Shown here piece after piece: positions 5,398 to 52,040 of a stretch of DNA of 64,000 bases. A program made the position numbers and the translations under genes. The notes below the pieces were generated by a model. That model was not told where the DNA came from and did not search any database. It saw only the letters and a program-made list of their open reading frames with translations. The DNA comes from Candidatus Yanofskybacteria bacterium RIFCSPHIGHO2_01_FULL_44_24 (GTDB lineage: Bacteria > Patescibacteriota > Minisyncoccia > 2-02-FULL-40-12 > GWA2-44-9), in assembly GCA_001794215.1 (NCBI GenBank), contig MGJK01000002.1, positions 3,310 through 67,309 on the forward strand, given 5' to 3'. Every line of letters begins with the position of its first letter. Within the stretch, counting starts at the first letter, position 1.

Positions 5398-6249
5398 TTG
5401 AAAAAAGCAATCTTGATAACCGTTTTGGCATTAGGGTCTGATATTTCAGTTGCCCAGAACCAGGACTTCAGGGTTCTCAATGATCAACTCATCGTCAAGC
5501 AGGGCCAGGTGCTGATTGTGGATGTTAATAAATATATACTTGCATCCGATATCGGAGTCTATGCTTTCGGCAGCACCTATACTCCAAATAAAAACGGCCG
5601 GACTTTTATAGGCGTTGATTCGGAGAAAGTTAAACCGGGTTTATATGTTGTCTACTTGGTTAATATGAAAGATGGTAGTTGGGTCGGGAGCCAATCTTCT
5701 CAGGTAGAGGTTCTAAGCGGAAGTTTGCCGGTAGTAAGAATTAACAAAAAATCGGCTTCTTCTCAGGTTGATTCGAAAAGAAGAGCAAAAGAATCTCAGC
5801 TGATATCAGGAGCCTATGCTCGCGGCAGTAAGTCGGAAGATTTTACGGATGGCGACTTTATTTATCCGCTGAAAGATCTGTTTATCACGGGGCCATTTGG
5901 TTTTCGGGCCTATTCGAATGCAACTTTTCTGCACAGGGGCGTTGATCTGAGAGCTACCGCAGGAACATCTGTTTTAGCAGTTAATTCAGGCAAGGTTGTT
6001 TTAGCTAAGACTAATTTCTCTTTGGAAGGTAATATGGTAATCCTCGATCACGGATCGGGCGTCTTCTCGATTTATATGCACTTGTCTCGAATTTTAGTCA
6101 AAGAAGGCCAGACCGTTAACAAGGGTCAGATTATTGCTCTATCCGGCAACACGGGATCTTCAACCGGCCCCCACCTCCACTTGGCTTTTAAGGTATCCGG
6201 CACTATAGTTGATCCATTCGGATCCATCGAGGTGATAAACAAATATTAA
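5398..6249 (+). CDS. M23 family metallopeptidase (LytM domain), secreted
   Basis: Signal peptide. The C-terminal block HRGVDL…GSGVFSIYMHLS…GNTGSSTGPHLH matches the M23 HxxxD/HxH motifs. Probable TTG start. Confidence 0.85.
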   Translation: MKKAILITVLALGSDISVAQNQDFRVLNDQLIVKQGQVLIVDVNKYILASDIGVYAFGSTYTPNKNGRTFIGVDSEKVKPGLYVVYLVNMKDGSWVGSQSSQVEVLSGSLPVVRINKKSASSQVDSKRRAKESQLISGAYARGSKSEDFTDGDFIYPLKDLFITGPFGFRAYSNATFLHRGVDLRATAGTSVLAVNSGKVVLAKTNFSLEGNMVILDHGSGVFSIYMHLSRILVKEGQTVNKGQIIALSGNTGSSTGPHLHLAFKVSGTIVDPFGSIEVINKY

Positions 6250-6277
6250 AAAACCGACAGCGTAGTCGGTTTTTTTG
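6250..6277. terminator. bidirectional intrinsic terminator between convergent genes
   Basis: AAAACCGAC-AGCGTA-GTCGGTTTTTTT. Confidence 0.6.
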
Positions 6278-6292
6278 TTTGGGATTAGAGTT

Positions 6293-7195
6293 TTATTTTT
6301 TGTTATGAAAACGCTTATGAACCTCTCTTAACTGTTTATCGGTAACATGGGTATATATTTGGGTCGTAGTGACCGAAGCGTGACCGAGCATTTCTTGAAC
6401 GGAGCGTATATCTGCTCCGTTGCGAAGAAGGTCGGTGGCGTAGGAGTGCCTTATAGTATGGGGTGATATATTCTTTCCCATAATCCCGGCTTTTATCGAG
6501 TATTTTTTTACTATTCTTTGGATGCTTCGGGGCGTCAGGCGAAGATCGGCCTCGGAATTTTTTTTAGAAATCCTTATGAATAGAGCCTCGTCCACGTCGG
6601 TTCTCTTCTTTTCGTATTGATAAATTCTATTTTTGGCATCTTCGGAAAGAAAGACTAATCTTATCTTGCTGCCCTTGCCTATTACCGACAGCTCCCCGCG
6701 CTTTAAATCTATCTTTTCCCGATTCAATGAGCAAAGTTCCGACACCCGCATTCCTGTGCTGAAAAGGACGCTTAGTATTGCCCGATCTCTTAAGGCATCC
6801 AAGTTCTCCCCTTCCGGAGCATTAAGCAATCTTTCGAACTCCTCGTTCTCTAAAAAGGTTACTTCCCGGGCCTCTTGTTTGCCAAGTTCAATTTTTTCGG
6901 CCGGAACAGACTTGATTCCTATTTTTGCCAGGTATTTCAAAAAATTTCTCAGGGAAATGACATGATAATTCTGAGTGATTCTTTTCAGGGTTTTTCCATT
7001 AGTATCCCTTAGGCGGTTAATAAAAAGCCTGTATTGGCGTATCAAGTCCTCGGTTAAATCATCTGCGTTGTTTGTTTTGGCAAAGCTCAAAAAACGGTCG
7101 AGATATCGGCTGTAGTTTTCTATGGTTTTAGCCGAACGTCCTTTTTCTATTTCAAGGTATTCGAGGTATCGATTTTTCAGTTCTTTTAAGTCCAT
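6293..7195 (-). CDS. tyrosine site-specific recombinase, XerC/XerD family
   Basis: N-terminal SAM-like domain (YLEYLEIEKGRSAKTIENY). C-terminal catalytic block HTIRHSYATDLLRNGADIRSVQEMLGHASVTTTQIYTH with the R…HxxR…Y residues. Confidence 0.85.
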   Translation of the reverse strand: MDLKELKNRYLEYLEIEKGRSAKTIENYSRYLDRFLSFAKTNNADDLTEDLIRQYRLFINRLRDTNGKTLKRITQNYHVISLRNFLKYLAKIGIKSVPAEKIELGKQEAREVTFLENEEFERLLNAPEGENLDALRDRAILSVLFSTGMRVSELCSLNREKIDLKRGELSVIGKGSKIRLVFLSEDAKNRIYQYEKKRTDVDEALFIRISKKNSEADLRLTPRSIQRIVKKYSIKAGIMGKNISPHTIRHSYATDLLRNGADIRSVQEMLGHASVTTTQIYTHVTDKQLREVHKRFHNKK

Positions 7196-7348: not shown

Positions 7349-7909
7349 TTATAGAATACCCAGTTCTTTTAGCGAGTCTTCGTATAGGTTGATCGCTCTT
7401 TTGGCTTCGGCATACCTTGCGAAGTATTTAGTGTCGTGGACTATAAGATTTCTGAGTTTATGGGCTTCCCAGAGGCCGTCGAGCGACTGAAGCCTAACCT
7501 TGTCTATATTTACCAAACGCTCCCCCATTGTTTCACCGGGATAGCCGGCCGCTTTCAGAATTTCATCAATTAATTTATCGGCTTCTATAACTGCAAATTT
7601 CCATTCCGCTTCTTTTACGGAATTGATATGCCGGACTATCTCTTCCCACCTGGCCGCTACCCCTGATCTGGCCGGGGTAAAAGGCAGGCTTTTTACTATT
7701 GATCCTCGCTTTGAATTCAGGCGCCTTATTCTCATTATCAGGTAGACCAGAAGAGCGAAGCAAATCGCCGATATTAAAAAAGAAAACGGCTTGATCCGGT
7801 CAGGACTCGGTGCGGCGTTAAATATCTGGGCAAAACCCAAATAATCAGCAGTGCCGTATAAAACGTCCCCAAGGTTCGAAAATATATTAGCTAATTCGTT
7901 GGTGTTCAT
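7349..7909 (-). CDS. hypothetical membrane-anchored protein
   Basis: 186-aa ORF with one TM helix ([15 protein letters not shown]). Its stop overlaps the gatA start. No family recognised. Confidence 0.45.
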
Positions 7910-9303
7910 AAAACTTTTTCCAGCTGGTGAGCTGCATTGAGCAGGGTTTGCTCGTCAAAATGTTTTCCGATCATTTGGAACCCGATCGGCAGGCGGCTGT
8001 TTTTACCGAGCCCGGCCGGAATTGATATTCCGGGAAGGCCGGCTAAGTTCACGGGGACAGTATATACGTCCTCAAGATATAAAGAAAGAGGATCGGATGC
8101 CTTCTCCCCTATTTTGAAGGCTGTTGTCGGGGATGTGGGTCCGACTATGACATCGACTTTTCCGAAAGCTTCATCGAAGTCTTTTTTGATGAGCGCCCGT
8201 ACTTTTTGGGCTTTGAGGTAATAAGCGTCGTAATATCCGGATGACAAAGCATAGGCCCCGAGCATTATTCTTCTCTTTGGTTCCGGTCCGAATCCGTGAG
8301 ATCTTGATTCAAGATAAGTATCCGAAAGCGTCGATCCACCATGAGACGAATAGCCATAGCGGATTCCGTCAAAGCGGGCGAGATTAGAGGATACCTCGCT
8401 TGGCACTATGATGTAGTATGAAGCAAGAGCATATTCGAAATTTGGCAGGCTTATATCCGCAATCTCGCATCCTAAATCCTCGAGCTTGGCTATGGCGTAT
8501 CTTATTTTTTCCTCTACTTCCGAGCTCAGTCCTTCTCTGAAAAATTCTTTGGGTACCCCTATCTTCAAACCTTTTATATTTTTGTCGAGGTTTTTGGTAA
8601 AATCAGGCACTTCACGAGGAACGGTGGTTGAATCAAATTTATCGGTTCCGGCAATTATGCCCAGGACCAGAGCGGCATCGTAAACATTTTTTGTCAGCGG
8701 TCCGATCTGATCAAGCGAAGAAGCCATTGCAATCAGGCCATGGCGGGAAACGCGTCCATAGGTGGGCTTAAGCCCCACCACCCCGCACATGCTGGCAGGC
8801 TGTCTAACGGAACCGCCGGTATCGGAACCCAAGGCAAAAACGCACAGATCCGCGGCTACGGCCGCGGCCGAGCCGCCTGAAGATCCGCCGGGAACCCGTT
8901 TTACATCGTGAGGATTCTTCGTTGGTCCGAAAGCGGAGTTTTCAGTGGATGTTCCCATAGCAAATTCGTCTAAGTTTGTTTTTCCGAGAAATTGGACGCC
9001 GGATGACCTAAGCTTGCTAACGGCCGTCGCATCATAGGCGGATATGTAGTTTTCAAGTATTTTTGATCCGGCCGTAGCCGCCGTACCCTCTATCAGCATA
9101 TTATCTTTAATTGCGCACGGTACGGCGGATAGAGGCTGATCGGGTAGGATGTCGGTCCGGTTTTCAAAGACAGACAGGTAAGCATTCAGCTTGTTGTTTT
9201 CTATCTTTATCTTGGCGTTGTAATATTTGAAAATTTCTTCAGCGGAAAATTCACGTGTTTTTAATCCGGCCAAGATATCTTTTATTGTATAGTTTTTAGC
9301 CAT
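7906..9303 (-). CDS. gatA: glutamyl-tRNA(Gln) amidotransferase subunit A
   Basis: Amidase signature [13 protein letters not shown]…[13 protein letters not shown]. Confidence 0.9.
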
Positions 9304-9604
9304 TCTTATTTAAAACAGATTTTACTTTGATAAATCTTTTTTCTGAGCGAGGGGCTTGTCCTATCAGTTTTTCATTCAGTTTGTCGCTCATTTCAAAGTC
9401 AGCTCGATGCTTGTCGGGGCGGCCGGAATTAGTAAGGCCGGTTACTTGGTATAGGGGTTCAACATTTTCAGTATCGAGCTCATTCAGCTTATTGATGTAG
9501 TCAATAATCAAAGAGAGTTCCTTGCGGAACTTATCTTCTTCTGCCCCGGATATCCTGATTCTGGCCAGATTGGCTATATGTTTTATTTCTTTTTCAGAAA
9601 GCAT
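9296..9604 (-). CDS. gatC: glutamyl-tRNA(Gln) amidotransferase subunit C
   Basis: ~100-aa protein immediately upstream of gat[19 protein letters not shown] matches the GatC pattern. Confidence 0.75.
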
Positions 9605-9630
9605 GTCTAAAAATTAGCATAATCAAAGGA

Positions 9631-12128
<2,498 letters not shown>

Positions 12129-46842: not shown

Positions 46843-46893
46843 AGCTAATCTTAACATATATAAGGGACTGCTGCCGAATAGCATTTCTACTCC

Positions 46894-47035
46894 AACTTTC
46901 AGATTTCGGCTATGCCCTTGCAGAAATTGCTCGACAGATACACTGTATATGCCTCACAATTTCTGCTTCGGCTCGCTTCAAGGCGAAGGTTCACGGGAGG
47001 AACTTCCCGGGAATCGCCTCCGAAATCTGAAAGTT
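46894..47035. repeat. 142-bp element bounded by perfect 16-bp inverted repeats (AACTTTCAGATTTCGG … CCGAAATCTGAAAGTT) with nested internal IRs
   Basis: Seen directly. Internal GCAGAAATTG…CAATTTCTGC and TCCCGGGA palindromes. Confidence 0.6.
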
Positions 47036-47137
47036 TCGCTGCGAAAGCCTATTCGGCAGCAGTCCCTTTAAGACACGAAAAAAGTCGTGTCCGCGACGGC
47101 CAAGCTGGAGCTTGGTTGCAGACACGACTTGCAGATC

Positions 47138-48013: not shown

Positions 48014-48042
48014 ATTATATCAAATTTCAACCTATTTGTAAA
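48014..48042 (-). promoter_or_regulatory. sigma70-type promoter for the GC-rich gene (TTTACA-17-TATAAT on minus strand)
   Basis: Minus strand reads cccTTTACAaataggttgaaatttgaTATAATataagc, ~60 nt upstream of the start codon. Confidence 0.5.
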
Positions 48043-48082
48043 GGGCTAAAAATGAGCCAAAATAGCTGTTTACAAAGCACTA

Positions 48083-48098
48083 TGTTCCGCGCGAAACT
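48083..48098. promoter_or_regulatory. palindromic motif copy 1 (TGTTCCGCGCGAAACT, imperfect)
   Basis: Lies ~40 nt upstream of the -35 of the promoter above. Confidence 0.4.
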
Positions 48099-48420
48099 AT
48101 CATAAAATTATGTCAATTGAGGGGCGGAGACCTTAGCATCTGAAGGGGGATTTCCCGGGCCGATTATTTAAACACTAAGCGAAGCCTTAACCCGATGAAC
48201 GGATTTATAAAAAACCAAGGCGAAGCCCCCTTGTCATTCTGAAGCATTTGAGACTTCCGAAACAACAGCCCAAGCGAGGCCGTAATCCATGAAGGGATTT
48301 ACGGAAATCGACCGGATTGAGTAAAAGGAGAAATTTCAGTAGAAATTTACTCCGTGCCCTTTATGGATTATGGCCAAGCGTTTTTATGGTGTACCTCGAA
48401 TAAGCCAAGGCTGAGTGTCT

Positions 48421-48789
48421 CTATATCTCGACATTCTTAAAATGTTTAATCTTTGCCACTCCCCTATTCTTATCAAAGACAAGAGAAATAATATCGACTT
48501 GCCATTCCTGGTTGGAGCCGATTTTTTTATCGGTCAGGTAAGTTTGGGCCGTACGAACAACTTTTTTCATTTTTTCTCTGTCAGCTCTTGTTTCAGGTTC
48601 GAACCCTGCGATATCGGCCGTGTTTGCTTTTACTTCAACAAAAACCAATACCTCATCTTTTTCGACGATCAAATCTATCTCGCCCCAAGGTTTTTTATAG
48701 TTTTGAGCTAATATTCGGTAGCCTTTAGATGCAAGATATTGTGCGACATAGCCCTCGGCTATAAATCCAATTTCAGATATTTTTGTCAT
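48421..48789 (-). CDS. yraN: YraN/UPF0102 family endonuclease
   Basis: …WGEIDLIVEKDEVLVFVEVKA… core of the UPF0102 family. 122 aa. Confidence 0.75.
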   Translation of the reverse strand: MTKISEIGFIAEGYVAQYLASKGYRILAQNYKKPWGEIDLIVEKDEVLVFVEVKANTADIAGFEPETRADREKMKKVVRTAQTYLTDKKIGSNQEWQVDIISLVFDKNRGVAKIKHFKNVEI

Positions 48790-48971
48790 TACAATAATCT
48801 ACATTTTTATACCCCCAATATCAACAAAGATTGATTGACATTGGAGGGTAAATAATGGTAGATTTACAGCGTAATTCTCATGCGGAGAATTTTTCTATTT
48901 TAGGGAGTTTTTAAGAGTTTGCGGCTTAAAAAACTACTATTGATACTAAATTCAACAAAATAAAGTCTTTT

Positions 48972-50072
48972 TTGGGGCAAGCGATCTCAAGACTTTCCAT
49001 ACATAGGCGCAGAACCAGAAACCTCGTCAAGAGTGAAGCTTTCGGAGTCTTTTCTTTCATAGTGATTATATTTGTCTTGTTTGCTTTTAAAATGGATAAC
49101 GGCGACAACAAAGCGAGTTTATTCAGTAATCTCTTGAAGGGCTATATAGAAGAAACATCGGCTTACATAGAAACAAACGGAAACCAACTTGCCGATATAG
49201 GAAGCCTTCTTGCTTTTAATTCGCAGGCTCCTTATGAAGAAGACTATGGAAGCGATATATTAGATTACAATATTGGCGATCAGTCGTTAAGCGCTTATAA
49301 TCCTGCCGAGGCTAACTACATCGAAGTGGGAAGATTCATAAGCAATCGAGTCTCTGAATACGCAGTTCAGCAGGGCGATTTACTGTCCTTTATAGCTTCC
49401 GACTATGGAGTCAGTATTAATTCCATTATCTGGGCTAATAACCTTAGAAATTCCGACAGTATCTCTCCCGGTCAGGTGCTTAAAATACCCCCGGTTTCAG
49501 GGGTAATTCATCAGATAAAATCAGGCGATACCATTGCTTCAATTGCTAAAAAATATAATGCTAACGAGGGGAGGATCATAGAATTTAACGGCTTATCCAA
49601 AAATGCTGAAATTAGCATAGGGGAACAGATTATCGTTCCTGACGGCGAGATCAAGTCAATGATTAAGGCTGGTACGACTATTGCTTCAGCCAACAAACCC
49701 TTTGCTTATTTAGCGAATCTCGGTGACTACTTTATGCTTCCGACCAACGGATACAACTGGGGAAGGATACATGGAAGAAACGGCGTGGATATTGCCAATT
49801 CTCGCGGTACTCCGATATATGCAGCAGCCGAAGGTTCCGTGGCAATTTCAGACGGGGTTGGTTATAACGGCGGTTTCGGACAATACATTAAGATAATTCA
49901 TCCAAATGGCACGGAGACCCTGTACGCCCATGGTTCGAAACTCTTAGTTTCAGCTGGTGATTATGTTCAGAGGGGCCAGCTGATAATGCTGATGGGCTCT
50001 ACCGGTCGGTCTACCGGGAACCATCTCCACTTTGAAGTCCATGGAGCCCGCAATCCATTAGCTAAGTACTAA
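48972..50072 (+). CDS. LysM-LysM-M23 peptidoglycan hydrolase, membrane-anchored
   Basis: TM anchor, two LysM repeats (…QQGDLLSFIASDYGVSINSIIWANNL…; …IKSGDTIASIAKKYNAN…), and a C-terminal M23 domain (GVDIANSRGTPIYAAAEG…GNHLHFEV). The start is uncertain (TTG at 48972). Confidence 0.8.
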   Translation: MGQAISRLSIHRRRTRNLVKSEAFGVFSFIVIIFVLFAFKMDNGDNKASLFSNLLKGYIEETSAYIETNGNQLADIGSLLAFNSQAPYEEDYGSDILDYNIGDQSLSAYNPAEANYIEVGRFISNRVSEYAVQQGDLLSFIASDYGVSINSIIWANNLRNSDSISPGQVLKIPPVSGVIHQIKSGDTIASIAKKYNANEGRIIEFNGLSKNAEISIGEQIIVPDGEIKSMIKAGTTIASANKPFAYLANLGDYFMLPTNGYNWGRIHGRNGVDIANSRGTPIYAAAEGSVAISDGVGYNGGFGQYIKIIHPNGTETLYAHGSKLLVSAGDYVQRGQLIMLMGSTGRSTGNHLHFEVHGARNPLAKY

Positions 50073-50097
50073 AAAACAGCCAAAAAGGCTGTTTTTT
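50072..50097. terminator. intrinsic terminator after LysM-M23 gene
   Basis: AAAAAACAGCC-AAAAA-GGCTGTTTTTT. Confidence 0.65.
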
Positions 50098-50108
50098 AGT
50101 TAATCTGC

Positions 50109-50128
50109 ATTGTTCCGCGCGGAACAAT
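50109..50128. promoter_or_regulatory. palindromic motif copy 2, perfect 20-bp palindrome ATTGTTCCGCGCGGAACAAT abutting a promoter
   Basis: Ends 2 nt before -35 TTGACT (50131-50136). 17-nt spacer, then -10 TAATTT (50154-50159). Followed by SD GGAGAAGGAGG and a TTG start at 50201. Confidence 0.5.
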
Positions 50129-50200
50129 CGTTGACTCAACTTCGAAAACCATCTAATTTAAGAAGGGCAAATTATACCACTGAGGAGAAGGAGGCTTCAG

Positions 50201-50512
50201 TTGAAGCAGGGGCGGAATTGGTTTGAGAGACAGGTTGAGGCCGTAGAAAAGGAGATCGATTCTATGCCTTCTTTTATGTTGAGGGGCGAGTTGCTATCAG
50301 AAAGAGCTGATAAAAATAGAGTAGAACGCATACAGGCTCTAATCACGTTCTTCGTCTCTTCTTACATGGAGGGCAGGGGTTGCATGACTGATTTTGATCG
50401 GGATCTTATCGAAACCCTGAACAATCTTAAGGCAAAATATAGGCAGAAACCGGCTGTTTGCCGGTTTTTGTTATCAAAATGTTCCGCGCGGAACATTAGG
50501 CCAAGTCACTGA
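50201..50512 (+). CDS. hypothetical protein (103 aa), TTG start with strong SD
   Basis: GGAGAAGGAGG lies 7 nt upstream of TTG. No family recognised. Confidence 0.5.
   Translation: MKQGRNWFERQVEAVEKEIDSMPSFMLRGELLSERADKNRVERIQALITFFVSSYMEGRGCMTDFDRDLIETLNNLKAKYRQKPAVCRFLLSKCSARNIRPSH
50478..50497. promoter_or_regulatory. palindromic motif copy 3, perfect 20-bp palindrome AATGTTCCGCGCGGAACATT at the convergent gene junction
   Basis: Overlaps the last codons of ORF 50201..50512 and the comM stop. Confidence 0.4.
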
Positions 50513-52040
50513 ACATCTTCTCGTTCAGCCGAAGACTTAGGGCTTCAGCAATATGGGTTTCATCGATCAGCTCAGACCGTTCAAGATCCGCTACGGTGCG
50601 GGCTAATTTTTTAATCTTATGGTAGGTTCTGAGCGATAACCCCTTGTTGTTTACGGCGGTTTTTAAAAGATTTTCTGCCGTTTTAGTAAGAAAACAGAAG
50701 GTATCTATGTTTTTGAAGTTTATCTCAGAATTAGTATAGATGTCACGGCCCTTAAATCGGGTCAACTGGACTTCCCTTGCTTTATCGATATTTTTTCTAA
50801 TTTCAGCCATTTTTTCCGGTTTTTGAGGCTCTGTCTTGGTTTCCATATCAATTGTTTCGCGCGGAACATTTACCTGTATGTCTATCCTGTCGAGCAGAGG
50901 TCCGGATATTTTTTTCCTGTATTTCAAGATGTTGAATGGGGGACACACACAAGCTGCCTTTTCGTTGCCAAAGTTTCCGCATGGGCATGGGTTCATTGCG
51001 GCTATTAGCATAAATTTGGCCGGTAGGACGGTTGATCCGGAGGCTCTTGAGATAGTTACCGTCCCGTCTTCCAGTGGCTGTCTGAGGCTTTCTAAGACGT
51101 CTCTCCTGAATTCAGGCAATTCATCAAGAAATAAAACTCCGCGATGAGCCAAGCTTATTTCTCCAGCCTTGGGGTAGCTTCCACCTCCGACAATAGCAAC
51201 GGACGATGTGGTATGGTGAGGGTTCCTGAAAGGCCTCTGGGCGGATAGGGGAGAGTTATTTATCAAGCCCACCGAACTGTATATCTTAGCCGTCTCTATT
51301 GCCTCATCAATAGACATATCTGGCATCAGGTCGATGGCGGCTTTTGCCAATATAGTCTTGCCGGAACCGGGCGGACCATACATGAGAATATTATGGAATC
51401 CGGCGGCGGCTATCGAGAGAGCTCTTTTAGCGAATTCTTGACCTTTTATGAGGGAAAAAACGTCAGCTTGGCGGCTGTTCGGCGAGTTTTCTAAGCTTAC
51501 TTTTTCTATCGGATCAATTATCGAAGTGCGGTTCAGGTGGCCTATTACTTCGCTTATATTCTGGGCTCCGATGACTTCGATACCTTGGATTATCGACGCT
51601 TCTTTTACATTGGAGGAGGGGAGTATTATCTCCTTTAACCCTAATTTATCGGCCAAAATAGCCATTGCTAAAGCTCCGTTTATTGGCTTCAAAGATCCAT
51701 CAAGAGACAGTTCACCGGCTAATAAAACTTTCGAAGAATCAAATTTAAGCTGGCCGGTTTCATAGAGATAACCTATCGCTACCGGCAAATCGTAGGACGG
51801 CCCCTCTTTTTTTAGATCAGCAGGTGCGAGGTTTATAATCAACCTCCTATTCTTAGAGTTCGGCGCCAATAAGCCGGCATTTTTTATAGCCGATCCGATA
51901 CGGTCTTTAGATTCTTGGACAGCCTTGTCGGGCAAACCGACAATGGTAAAAGAGTGAAGGCCGGGAGTCGAATCAACCTCAACTTCAATAAGCTGGGCGT
52001 CTATTCCGGTTATGGCTGCGGATAGGATTCTGACTGACAA
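50496..52040 (-). CDS. comM: Mg-chelatase-like AAA+ protein ComM/YifB
   Basis: N-terminal Lon-like domain, Walker A MYGPPGSGKT, Walker B VLFLDELPE, and a C-terminal Mg-chelatase ChlI-like region. Confidence 0.85.
   Translation of the reverse strand: MSVRILSAAITGIDAQLIEVEVDSTPGLHSFTIVGLPDKAVQESKDRIGSAIKNAGLLAPNSKNRRLIINLAPADLKKEGPSYDLPVAIGYLYETGQLKFDSSKVLLAGELSLDGSLKPINGALAMAILADKLGLKEIILPSSNVKEASIIQGIEVIGAQNISEVIGHLNRTSIIDPIEKVSLENSPNSRQADVFSLIKGQEFAKRALSIAAAGFHNILMYGPPGSGKTILAKAAIDLMPDMSIDEAIETAKIYSSVGLINNSPLSAQRPFRNPHHTTSSVAIVGGGSYPKAGEISLAHRGVLFLDELPEFRRDVLESLRQPLEDGTVTISRASGSTVLPAKFMLIAAMNPCPCGNFGNEKAACVCPPFNILKYRKKISGPLLDRIDIQVNVPRETIDMETKTEPQKPEKMAEIRKNIDKAREVQLTRFKGRDIYTNSEINFKNIDTFCFLTKTAENLLKTAVNNKGLSLRTYHKIKKLARTVADLERSELIDETHIAEALSLRLNEKMFSDLA
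50851..50870. repeat. palindromic motif copy 4 (ATTGTTTCGCGCGGAACATT, 2 mismatches) inside comM coding region
   Basis: Seen directly. Confidence 0.4.

Follow-up and report, generated by a model that had tools for sequence, protein, structure and literature searches.

Chromosomal ParB acts as a dimer whose helix-turn-helix domains read a 16-bp dyad, parS. Once bound, the dimer shuts into a clamp that depends on CTP and spreads by sliding along the neighbouring DNA; ParA then moves the partition complex so formed, which can also load SMC. The consensus of chromosomal parS is TGTTNCACGTGAAACA, and ParB bound at an intergenic parS can repress an adjacent promoter (PMC7022226). Bacillus subtilis carries a parS site, TGTTCCACGTGAAACA, inside its parB gene (PMC4333373). 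Two half-site positions, 1 and 6, distinguish idealised parS (TGTTTCAC-GTGAAACA) from the site of the ParB paralogue Noc (TATTTCCC-GGGAAATA), and the ParB residues that read them are 173 and 201 (PMC7383237). Here we report on four GC-rich palindromes in and around the comM gene of Candidatus Yanofskybacteria bacterium RIFCSPHIGHO2_01_FULL_44_24, a member of the candidate phyla radiation (CPR; Patescibacteria). They lie in a 64,000-nucleotide stretch of contig MGJK01000002.1 (positions 3,310 to 67,309), which stems from groundwater and is referred to below as the window. To judge from the sequence comparisons that follow, the four palindromes probably form a cluster of parS (chromosome-partition) sites of a new sequence variant, putatively bound by ParB.

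A search with the 16-mer TGTTCCGCGCGGAACA (the palindrome family is also written TGTTYCGCGCGRAACA) at up to three mismatches found four copies in the window (Table 1), compared to 0.15 expected from shuffles, none of which reached four. All four copies lie within 2.8 kb, and the rest of the 64 kb contains no further copy. This result confirmed the fourfold repeat described in an earlier reading of this DNA from its letters alone (the sequence-only reading), which was also correct in placing copies 3 and 4 at and within the 3' region of comM and in extending the two perfect copies to 20-bp palindromes (starts at 50109 and 50478). Its suggestion of a dispersed repeat or an uptake signal did not suit this genome, since every copy in the window falls in this one interval. 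Near-identical contigs of the same species from other samples (L001-L018) carried the four sites at identical spacing in all that were fetched. The hexamer CGCGCG is confined to the four palindromes in the window, where 11 occurrences would be expected. The shorter CGCG occurs at about half its expected frequency (92 compared to 196 in window positions 1-64000), and this scarcity may reflect avoidance of a CGCG-specific restriction system.

The motif agrees with the parS consensus TGTTNCACGTGNAACA at 14 of 16 positions. Both departures fall at the symmetric positions 7 and 10, where A/T is replaced by G/C in all four sites, and the changed base is a known specificity position. Otherwise, the four sites depart from the consensus only at the position that is already written N. 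In terms of half-sites, the palindrome family has G for A at position 6 and at its mirror, giving a centre of CGCGCG compared to CACGTG in parS. Within two mismatches of the parS consensus, the 64 kb contain three of these sites and nothing else. The copy inside comM (site 4) agrees at 14 of 16 positions with the B. subtilis parS TGTTCCACGTGAAACA, and the B. subtilis 16-mer in the frame used in comM also encodes V-P-R-E-T, which we take to be the frame really used in spo0J. All four sites in the window can be read as V-P-R-(E/G)-T. The variant 14-mers were not found in the searchable literature, and that literature yielded no link between ParB and Patescibacteria or Parcubacteria.

Conservation in relatives was assessed with the comM loci of ten further Yanofskybacteria species, whose ComM proteins are 62-79% identical (11 species in all). 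The comM-internal site is present in 11 of 11 species, as TGTTCCGCGCGAAACA or with one further change. In a codon alignment of the 11 comM genes, it is the best conserved 16-nt window (98.9% mean column identity compared to 90.9% for the next best), and the codons flanking it show free synonymous variation. Where the amino acid is invariant and has at least four codons (110 columns), only two columns are written with a single codon, and these are the V (GTT) and the T (ACA) of site 4. RNA folding predicts an 8-bp stem for the perfect copies, sites 2 and 3 (-8.8 and -9.3 kcal/mol), but no hairpin for site 4 (-0.2 kcal/mol, worse than most shuffles), and site 1 is likewise unfolded. The conservation of an internal site that does not fold as RNA implies a constraint on the double-stranded sequence, as expected of a protein-binding site.

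In all species but L219 (10 of 11), the comM stop codon is also followed by a perfect or near-perfect copy. This copy stands 0-234 nt past the stop in nine relatives with a readable distance (L048, L098, L220-L225) and is also downstream of comM in L102; in several relatives it sits in a gap of 23-45 nt between convergent genes. L048, L102 and L220 have a second or third site downstream of comM, and a weaker counterpart of site 1, GGTTCCCTGCGGAACA, occupies the equivalent position in L222. Further copies number 0 to 2 per species, and the DNA between copies differs by species; the sites in comM and past its stop persist while the surrounding sequences and genes change. Within the relatives' loci of 13-15 kb, copies are restricted to the comM-yraN interval. 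A profile of 29 sites from the 11 species contains 1.2-2.0 bits across the 16 bp and at most 0.6 bits outside; because the sites were picked by palindrome similarity, which inflates the information of the core, the informative part of this profile is its unconserved flanks. The only column that varies is position 5 with its mirror 12, as in parS, and variant sites carry changes on one side without compensation. Distant comM homologues from a metagenome comM scan, which among the matches listed were all at most 54% identical, were used as a negative control, and among them no site was found at comM except in L139. In that locus (comM at 54% identity), the same codons hold the hybrid site CGTTCCGCGTGGAACT (1797-1812), which joins a CGC-type half-site to a canonical GTGGAAC half-site and is possibly an intermediate between two parS types.

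An exact 18-mer scan with one genome per species found at least 120 loci, which among the matches listed were mostly in Planctomycetota, with others in Acidobacteriota, an Alcaligenaceae metagenome-assembled genome (MAG) and CPR; among these matches, Yanofskybacteria genomes have one locus each, a count that is indicative. A tblastn search with a Spo0J query revealed ParB genes in six palindrome loci (four Planctomycetota, one Acidobacteria and one Alcaligenaceae), all retrieved solely for containing the palindrome. The six ParBs are full-length by Pfam (ParB_N, HTH_ParB and ParB_C). Three or four sites lie within ~1.7 kb of parB or a parAB operon in five of these six loci, and in L091 four sites stand directly upstream of a parA-parB operon; the sixth locus, L079, has a single site 2.2 kb from parB. 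By contrast, control loci amounting to 711 kb gave no ParB match by tblastn. The palindrome loci, 868 kb in all, hold 171 CGCGCG-type sites and no canonical parS. In the six palindrome-linked ParBs, the arginine equivalent to R173 is kept, as fits the G still present at position 1, and the equivalent of G201 is A, A, S, S, T and G.

Copy number is much higher in several Planctomycetota MAGs (within L019-L138; for example CAWBOY01, CALJLN01, VGZI01 and CAVYFY01), which carry dozens of 16-18-mer copies on many contigs, often paired or arrayed at 36-100 bp spacing and far above the usual parS set. In the Parcubacteria MAG RS_9_75, three perfect palindromes stand in tandem with a 38-bp period (L063 972-1063) inside a CCA-adding-enzyme ORF (open reading frame) that is apparently broken in frame, and this MAG has a further two copies on a second contig, of 2 kb (L133). 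The tandem array in L063 could be a misassembly or a real expansion.

The assignment of the four palindromes to parS is based on their sequence relationship to parS, their conservation at the DNA level, their clustering at one locus and the linkage of the 16-mer to parB in other phyla. The function would be ordinary; the sequence variant is new, and it occurs in an uncultured CPR lineage with a centromere not described before. The sites would be centromere-like loading sites of a chromosomal ParABS system. A ParB dimer would load on each dyad, clamp with CTP and spread to the flanks, after which the partition complex would be moved by ParA and could load SMC; the four sites in 2.8 kb would constitute a nucleation zone. 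The comM-internal site would be kept through the codons GTT CCG CGC GAA ACA, which spell V-P-R-E-T and the site together. The nearness of sites 1 and 2 to promoters would be incidental, or would reflect mild ParB-mediated repression at most. ParB may have a side effect on the small 103-aa ORF beside site 2 or on the nearby gene for a 272-aa protein, which is conceivable because ParB at an intergenic parS can repress a promoter (PMC7022226). We infer that this genome encodes a ParB that binds the sites and that the locus lies near the origin. This ParB was not found among the best 120 protein matches, where the ParBs of other phyla would swamp it.

Several results weigh against this assignment. 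The 64-kb window yielded no ParB, ParA or DnaA gene, and neither did the DNA up to 7 kb from comM in seven relatives; the window also has no DnaA-box cluster. The GC-skew signal is noisy; its cumulative curve has a local minimum near 46 kb. The A, S or T at position 201 of the palindrome-linked ParBs is within the range that still bound canonical parS in a mutational scan, so that these residues are suggestive only (PMC7383237). Moreover, the dozens of copies in Planctomycetota exceed a typical parS set, and the motif may therefore have more than one role.

Among the alternatives, we consider it very improbable that the palindromes are the sites of a site-specific recombinase (Xer/dif-like, invertase or integrase attachment) at which cassettes are inserted or segments inverted. 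The 7-bp arms and 6-bp centre resemble tyrosine-recombinase core sites, but the sequence is that of a parS variant and is not dif-like. What lies between the copies varies by species: it is the 103-aa ORF in this window, an ORF of 77 aa in L048 and, in L220, an inverted-repeat element of 320 bp. The yraN-M23 segment is inverted in L223; nevertheless, no rearrangement was seen in any fetched near-identical contig (L001-L018), and none of the 11 species has a disrupted copy inside comM. The Xer-like integrase of the window (6296-7195) is 42 kb off, and the linkage in other phyla is to parB and not to a recombinase. Moreover, dif is a single site per chromosome, at the terminus, whereas each locus here has two to four copies, one of them inside a gene. 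Integron-like or dif-module cassettes were also considered and rejected; the variable inserts fit them, but the parB linkage and the parS sequence explain more.

We also consider it very improbable that the palindromes are operators of a dimeric transcription factor for a local regulon of the peptidase gene, the small gene, the 272-aa gene and comM, a possibility that follows the main proposal of the sequence-only reading. Part of that proposal stood, in that the 16-bp dyad suits a helix-turn-helix protein that binds as a dimer, and the four copies do form one group. Its transcriptional part did not, since the conserved copies are not at promoters; they sit within comM and, between convergent genes, at its 3' end, and the promoter-adjacent small gene is a species-specific orphan absent from relatives. 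Dyad symmetry and the position of site 2, which ends 4 nt ahead of a -35-like TTGACT, would suit an operator, but the TTGACT-17-TAATTT promoter that had been assigned beside this copy was not among the promoter-scan returns. Copy 1 does lie upstream of a strong promoter-like site, as had been described, with a weak counterpart in the same place in L222; however, promoter-like sites are not enriched in the region (10 compared to 9.5 expected). The two M23/LysM peptidase neighbours of the supposed regulon reduced to one, the GC-rich gene for the 272-aa secreted-type protein having no Pfam match, and no transcription factor gene was found near the sites by Pfam among the window genes. Thus, the operator and its regulon are unsupported, because the conserved sites lie off promoters, the small gene is an orphan, and the sequence is a parS variant whose clusters stand by parB in other phyla. 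No "regulon" of peptidase, small gene and comM should be annotated in this window.

The least probable alternative, that the palindromes are REP-like (repetitive extragenic palindromic) repeats or RNA hairpins with a role in transcript termination or stability at gene 3' ends, draws on the folding of the perfect copies at gene 3' ends beside terminators and on the multi-copy, clustered motif in Planctomycetota and a Parcubacteria MAG, but is contradicted by the unfolded comM-internal copy and site 1, by a terminator scan that reported none of the palindrome sites, by the uncompensated one-sided changes in variant sites, and by the presence of only four copies in 64 kb, at one locus. The many copies typical of a dispersed repeat are found in some Planctomycetota MAGs and not in the window, which has four copies at one locus. 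An RNA hairpin as such was rejected because the conserved internal site does not fold. Rfam gave no match in the window at gathering thresholds, nor in five related loci at E values up to 0.1.

Table 1. Positions, in window coordinates, of the parS-like sites and neighbouring features
Feature	Position	Strand	Mismatches to TGTTCCGCGCGGAACA	Remarks
parS-like site 1	48083..48098	.	2	degenerate, TGTTCCGCGCGAAACT; ~41 nt ahead of the -35 hexamer in the promoter-like site of the 272-aa gene
parS-like site 2	50111..50126	.	0	perfect palindrome; 13 nt past the LysM/M23 terminator hairpin and 4 nt ahead of the weak -35-like TTGACT
parS-like site 3	50480..50495	.	0	perfect palindrome abutting the comM stop codon (50496-50498)
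parS-like site 4	50853..50868	.	1	within comM codons N-V-P-R-E-T-I; sense strand TGTTCCGCGCGAAACA = V-P-R-E-T
comM (Mg-chelatase-like AAA+ ATPase)	50496..52040	-		Pfam Mg_chelatase, ChlI and Mg_chelatase_C; hosts site 4, with site 3 at its 3' end
LysM/M23 peptidase gene	48972-50072			only LysM/M23 neighbour of the sites
103-aa orphan ORF	50201..50512	+		between sites 2 and 3; strong Shine-Dalgarno sequence
Promoter-like site	48042..48014	-		11/12 matches, strong; candidate promoter of the 272-aa gene

The gene order around comM is kept in relatives, and every assembly ends ~1.1 kb past a Fic gene. The 103-aa ORF between sites 2 and 3 is outside the conserved system. Its sole relatives among 5.8 billion proteins form a single 99%-identical cluster, and it is absent from L098, L224 and L225, where the gap between comM and the peptidase gene is 23-45 nt. 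As a candidate coding sequence, it would be read across a terminator-like hairpin (50449-50470) and then site 3, and it shares 17 nt with the 3' end of comM. A stretch of 44 nt upstream of site 1 (48028-48071) is 75% identical to the stretch at 50051-50094, which comprises the 3' end of the M23 gene and the terminator upstream of site 2; this identity suggests that a terminator-plus-site module was duplicated.

The 320 nt from site 1 to yraN (48100-48420) contain no ORF above a few dozen codons. They carry a 19-nt inverted repeat (48278-48296 and 48357-48375) and, on the minus strand, a terminator-like hairpin (48233-48216), and gave no Rfam match at gathering thresholds. The shared V-P-R-(E/G)-T reading of the four sites had suggested duplicated comM 3' ends or attachment sites of an integrated island, an idea that we rejected, as sites 2-4 have no similarity to each other beyond ~20 bp and no relation of this noncoding segment to the loci of relatives could be detected. 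The interval from tsaE to the 272-aa gene holds an imperfect long hairpin of ~200 nt with nested inverted repeats (46862-47068), a candidate for a small structured or mobile element. The 49 nt at its core (46979-47027) share 92% identity with L222 10706-10754, in opposite orientation relative to the genes, and the L222 stretch lies 30 nt from the site-1-like palindrome of that locus.

Other elements of the region were noted in the relatives and elsewhere in the window. In L220, two perfect palindromes flank a foldback (long inverted repeat) element of ~320 bp (7710-8060); related sequence stands directly past comM in L221 and, more diverged, in L219, and both contigs end within it. In L223, the yraN-M23 pair (8538-10735) is inverted compared to all other relatives, with palindromes past the comM stop and directly past the yraN stop. 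The Xer-like integrase (tyrosine recombinase) gene of the window pairs with an M23 gene (5398-7195) that is likewise ~42 kb from the sites. By contrast, in L222, L223 and L225 an Xer-like tyrosine recombinase gene adjoins rpsO ~6 kb upstream of comM, beside an M23 peptidase gene in L222 and L225, and this difference in distance implies that the region has been rearranged. Near the start of the window, a LAGLIDADG homing-endonuclease-like ORF (905-1630) directly follows the 3' end of infB, and its own 3' end overlaps the start of a tRNA-Cys gene (1616-1689).

If confirmed, the parS cluster would be the first concrete centromere for a CPR lineage. CPR organisms are uncultured, and their chromosome biology is known from gene lists alone. 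A parS cluster marks the origin-proximal domain and could help to orient and close MAGs; searches based on the parS consensus would overlook these lineages. Of the two bases that experimentally separate ParB from Noc specificity, the variant changes exactly one, and it would represent natural specificity drift in the ParB family. We further propose, as a tentative idea that we hold less firmly than the parS assignment itself, that the ParB/Noc family could contain a third class of specificity, defined by TGTTCCGCGCGGAACA and its G at half-site position 6. This sequence would act as the chromosomal centromere at least in Yanofskybacteria and in lineages of Planctomycetota and Acidobacteriota, would be read by ParBs with A, S or T in place of G at residue 201, and would have multiplied to dozens of clusters over the chromosome in some Planctomycetota. 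If so, this multiplication would imply a role of ParB beyond origin segregation, for example a Noc-like or chromosome-organising one.

Of the described systems, dif and pdif sites with integrated modules (Xer) resemble this locus in having a short dyad at one locus, with repeated copies that bracket variable small inserts. They differ in that the locus described here has a copy inside an intact gene in every species and in that the linkage in other phyla is to parB and not to Xer; we know of no sequence resemblance of the palindrome to dif. The binding site of the ParB paralogue Noc (NBS, TATTTCCCGGGAAATA) belongs to the same 16-bp dyad family and, like the palindromes, departs from parS at half-site position 6, which is read by residue 201 (PMC7383237). 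However, the NBS also alters position 1 (A for G), carries C where the palindromes have G (position 6), and occurs at sites dispersed over the chromosome. Correspondingly, Noc has Q where the palindrome-linked ParBs keep R173, and those ParBs do not have R at 201. Chromosomal parS, the ParB/Spo0J site, shares with the palindromes the 16-bp dyad, agreement at 14 of 16 positions and the same tolerated variable position (5/12). In both cases, a few copies are clustered at one locus and one copy lies in a coding region, which is spo0J/parB in B. subtilis and comM here. The palindrome variant adjoins parB or parAB in other phyla. One difference is the CGCGCG centre: its G occupies half-site position 6, which is among the two positions by which parS and the Noc site are told apart.

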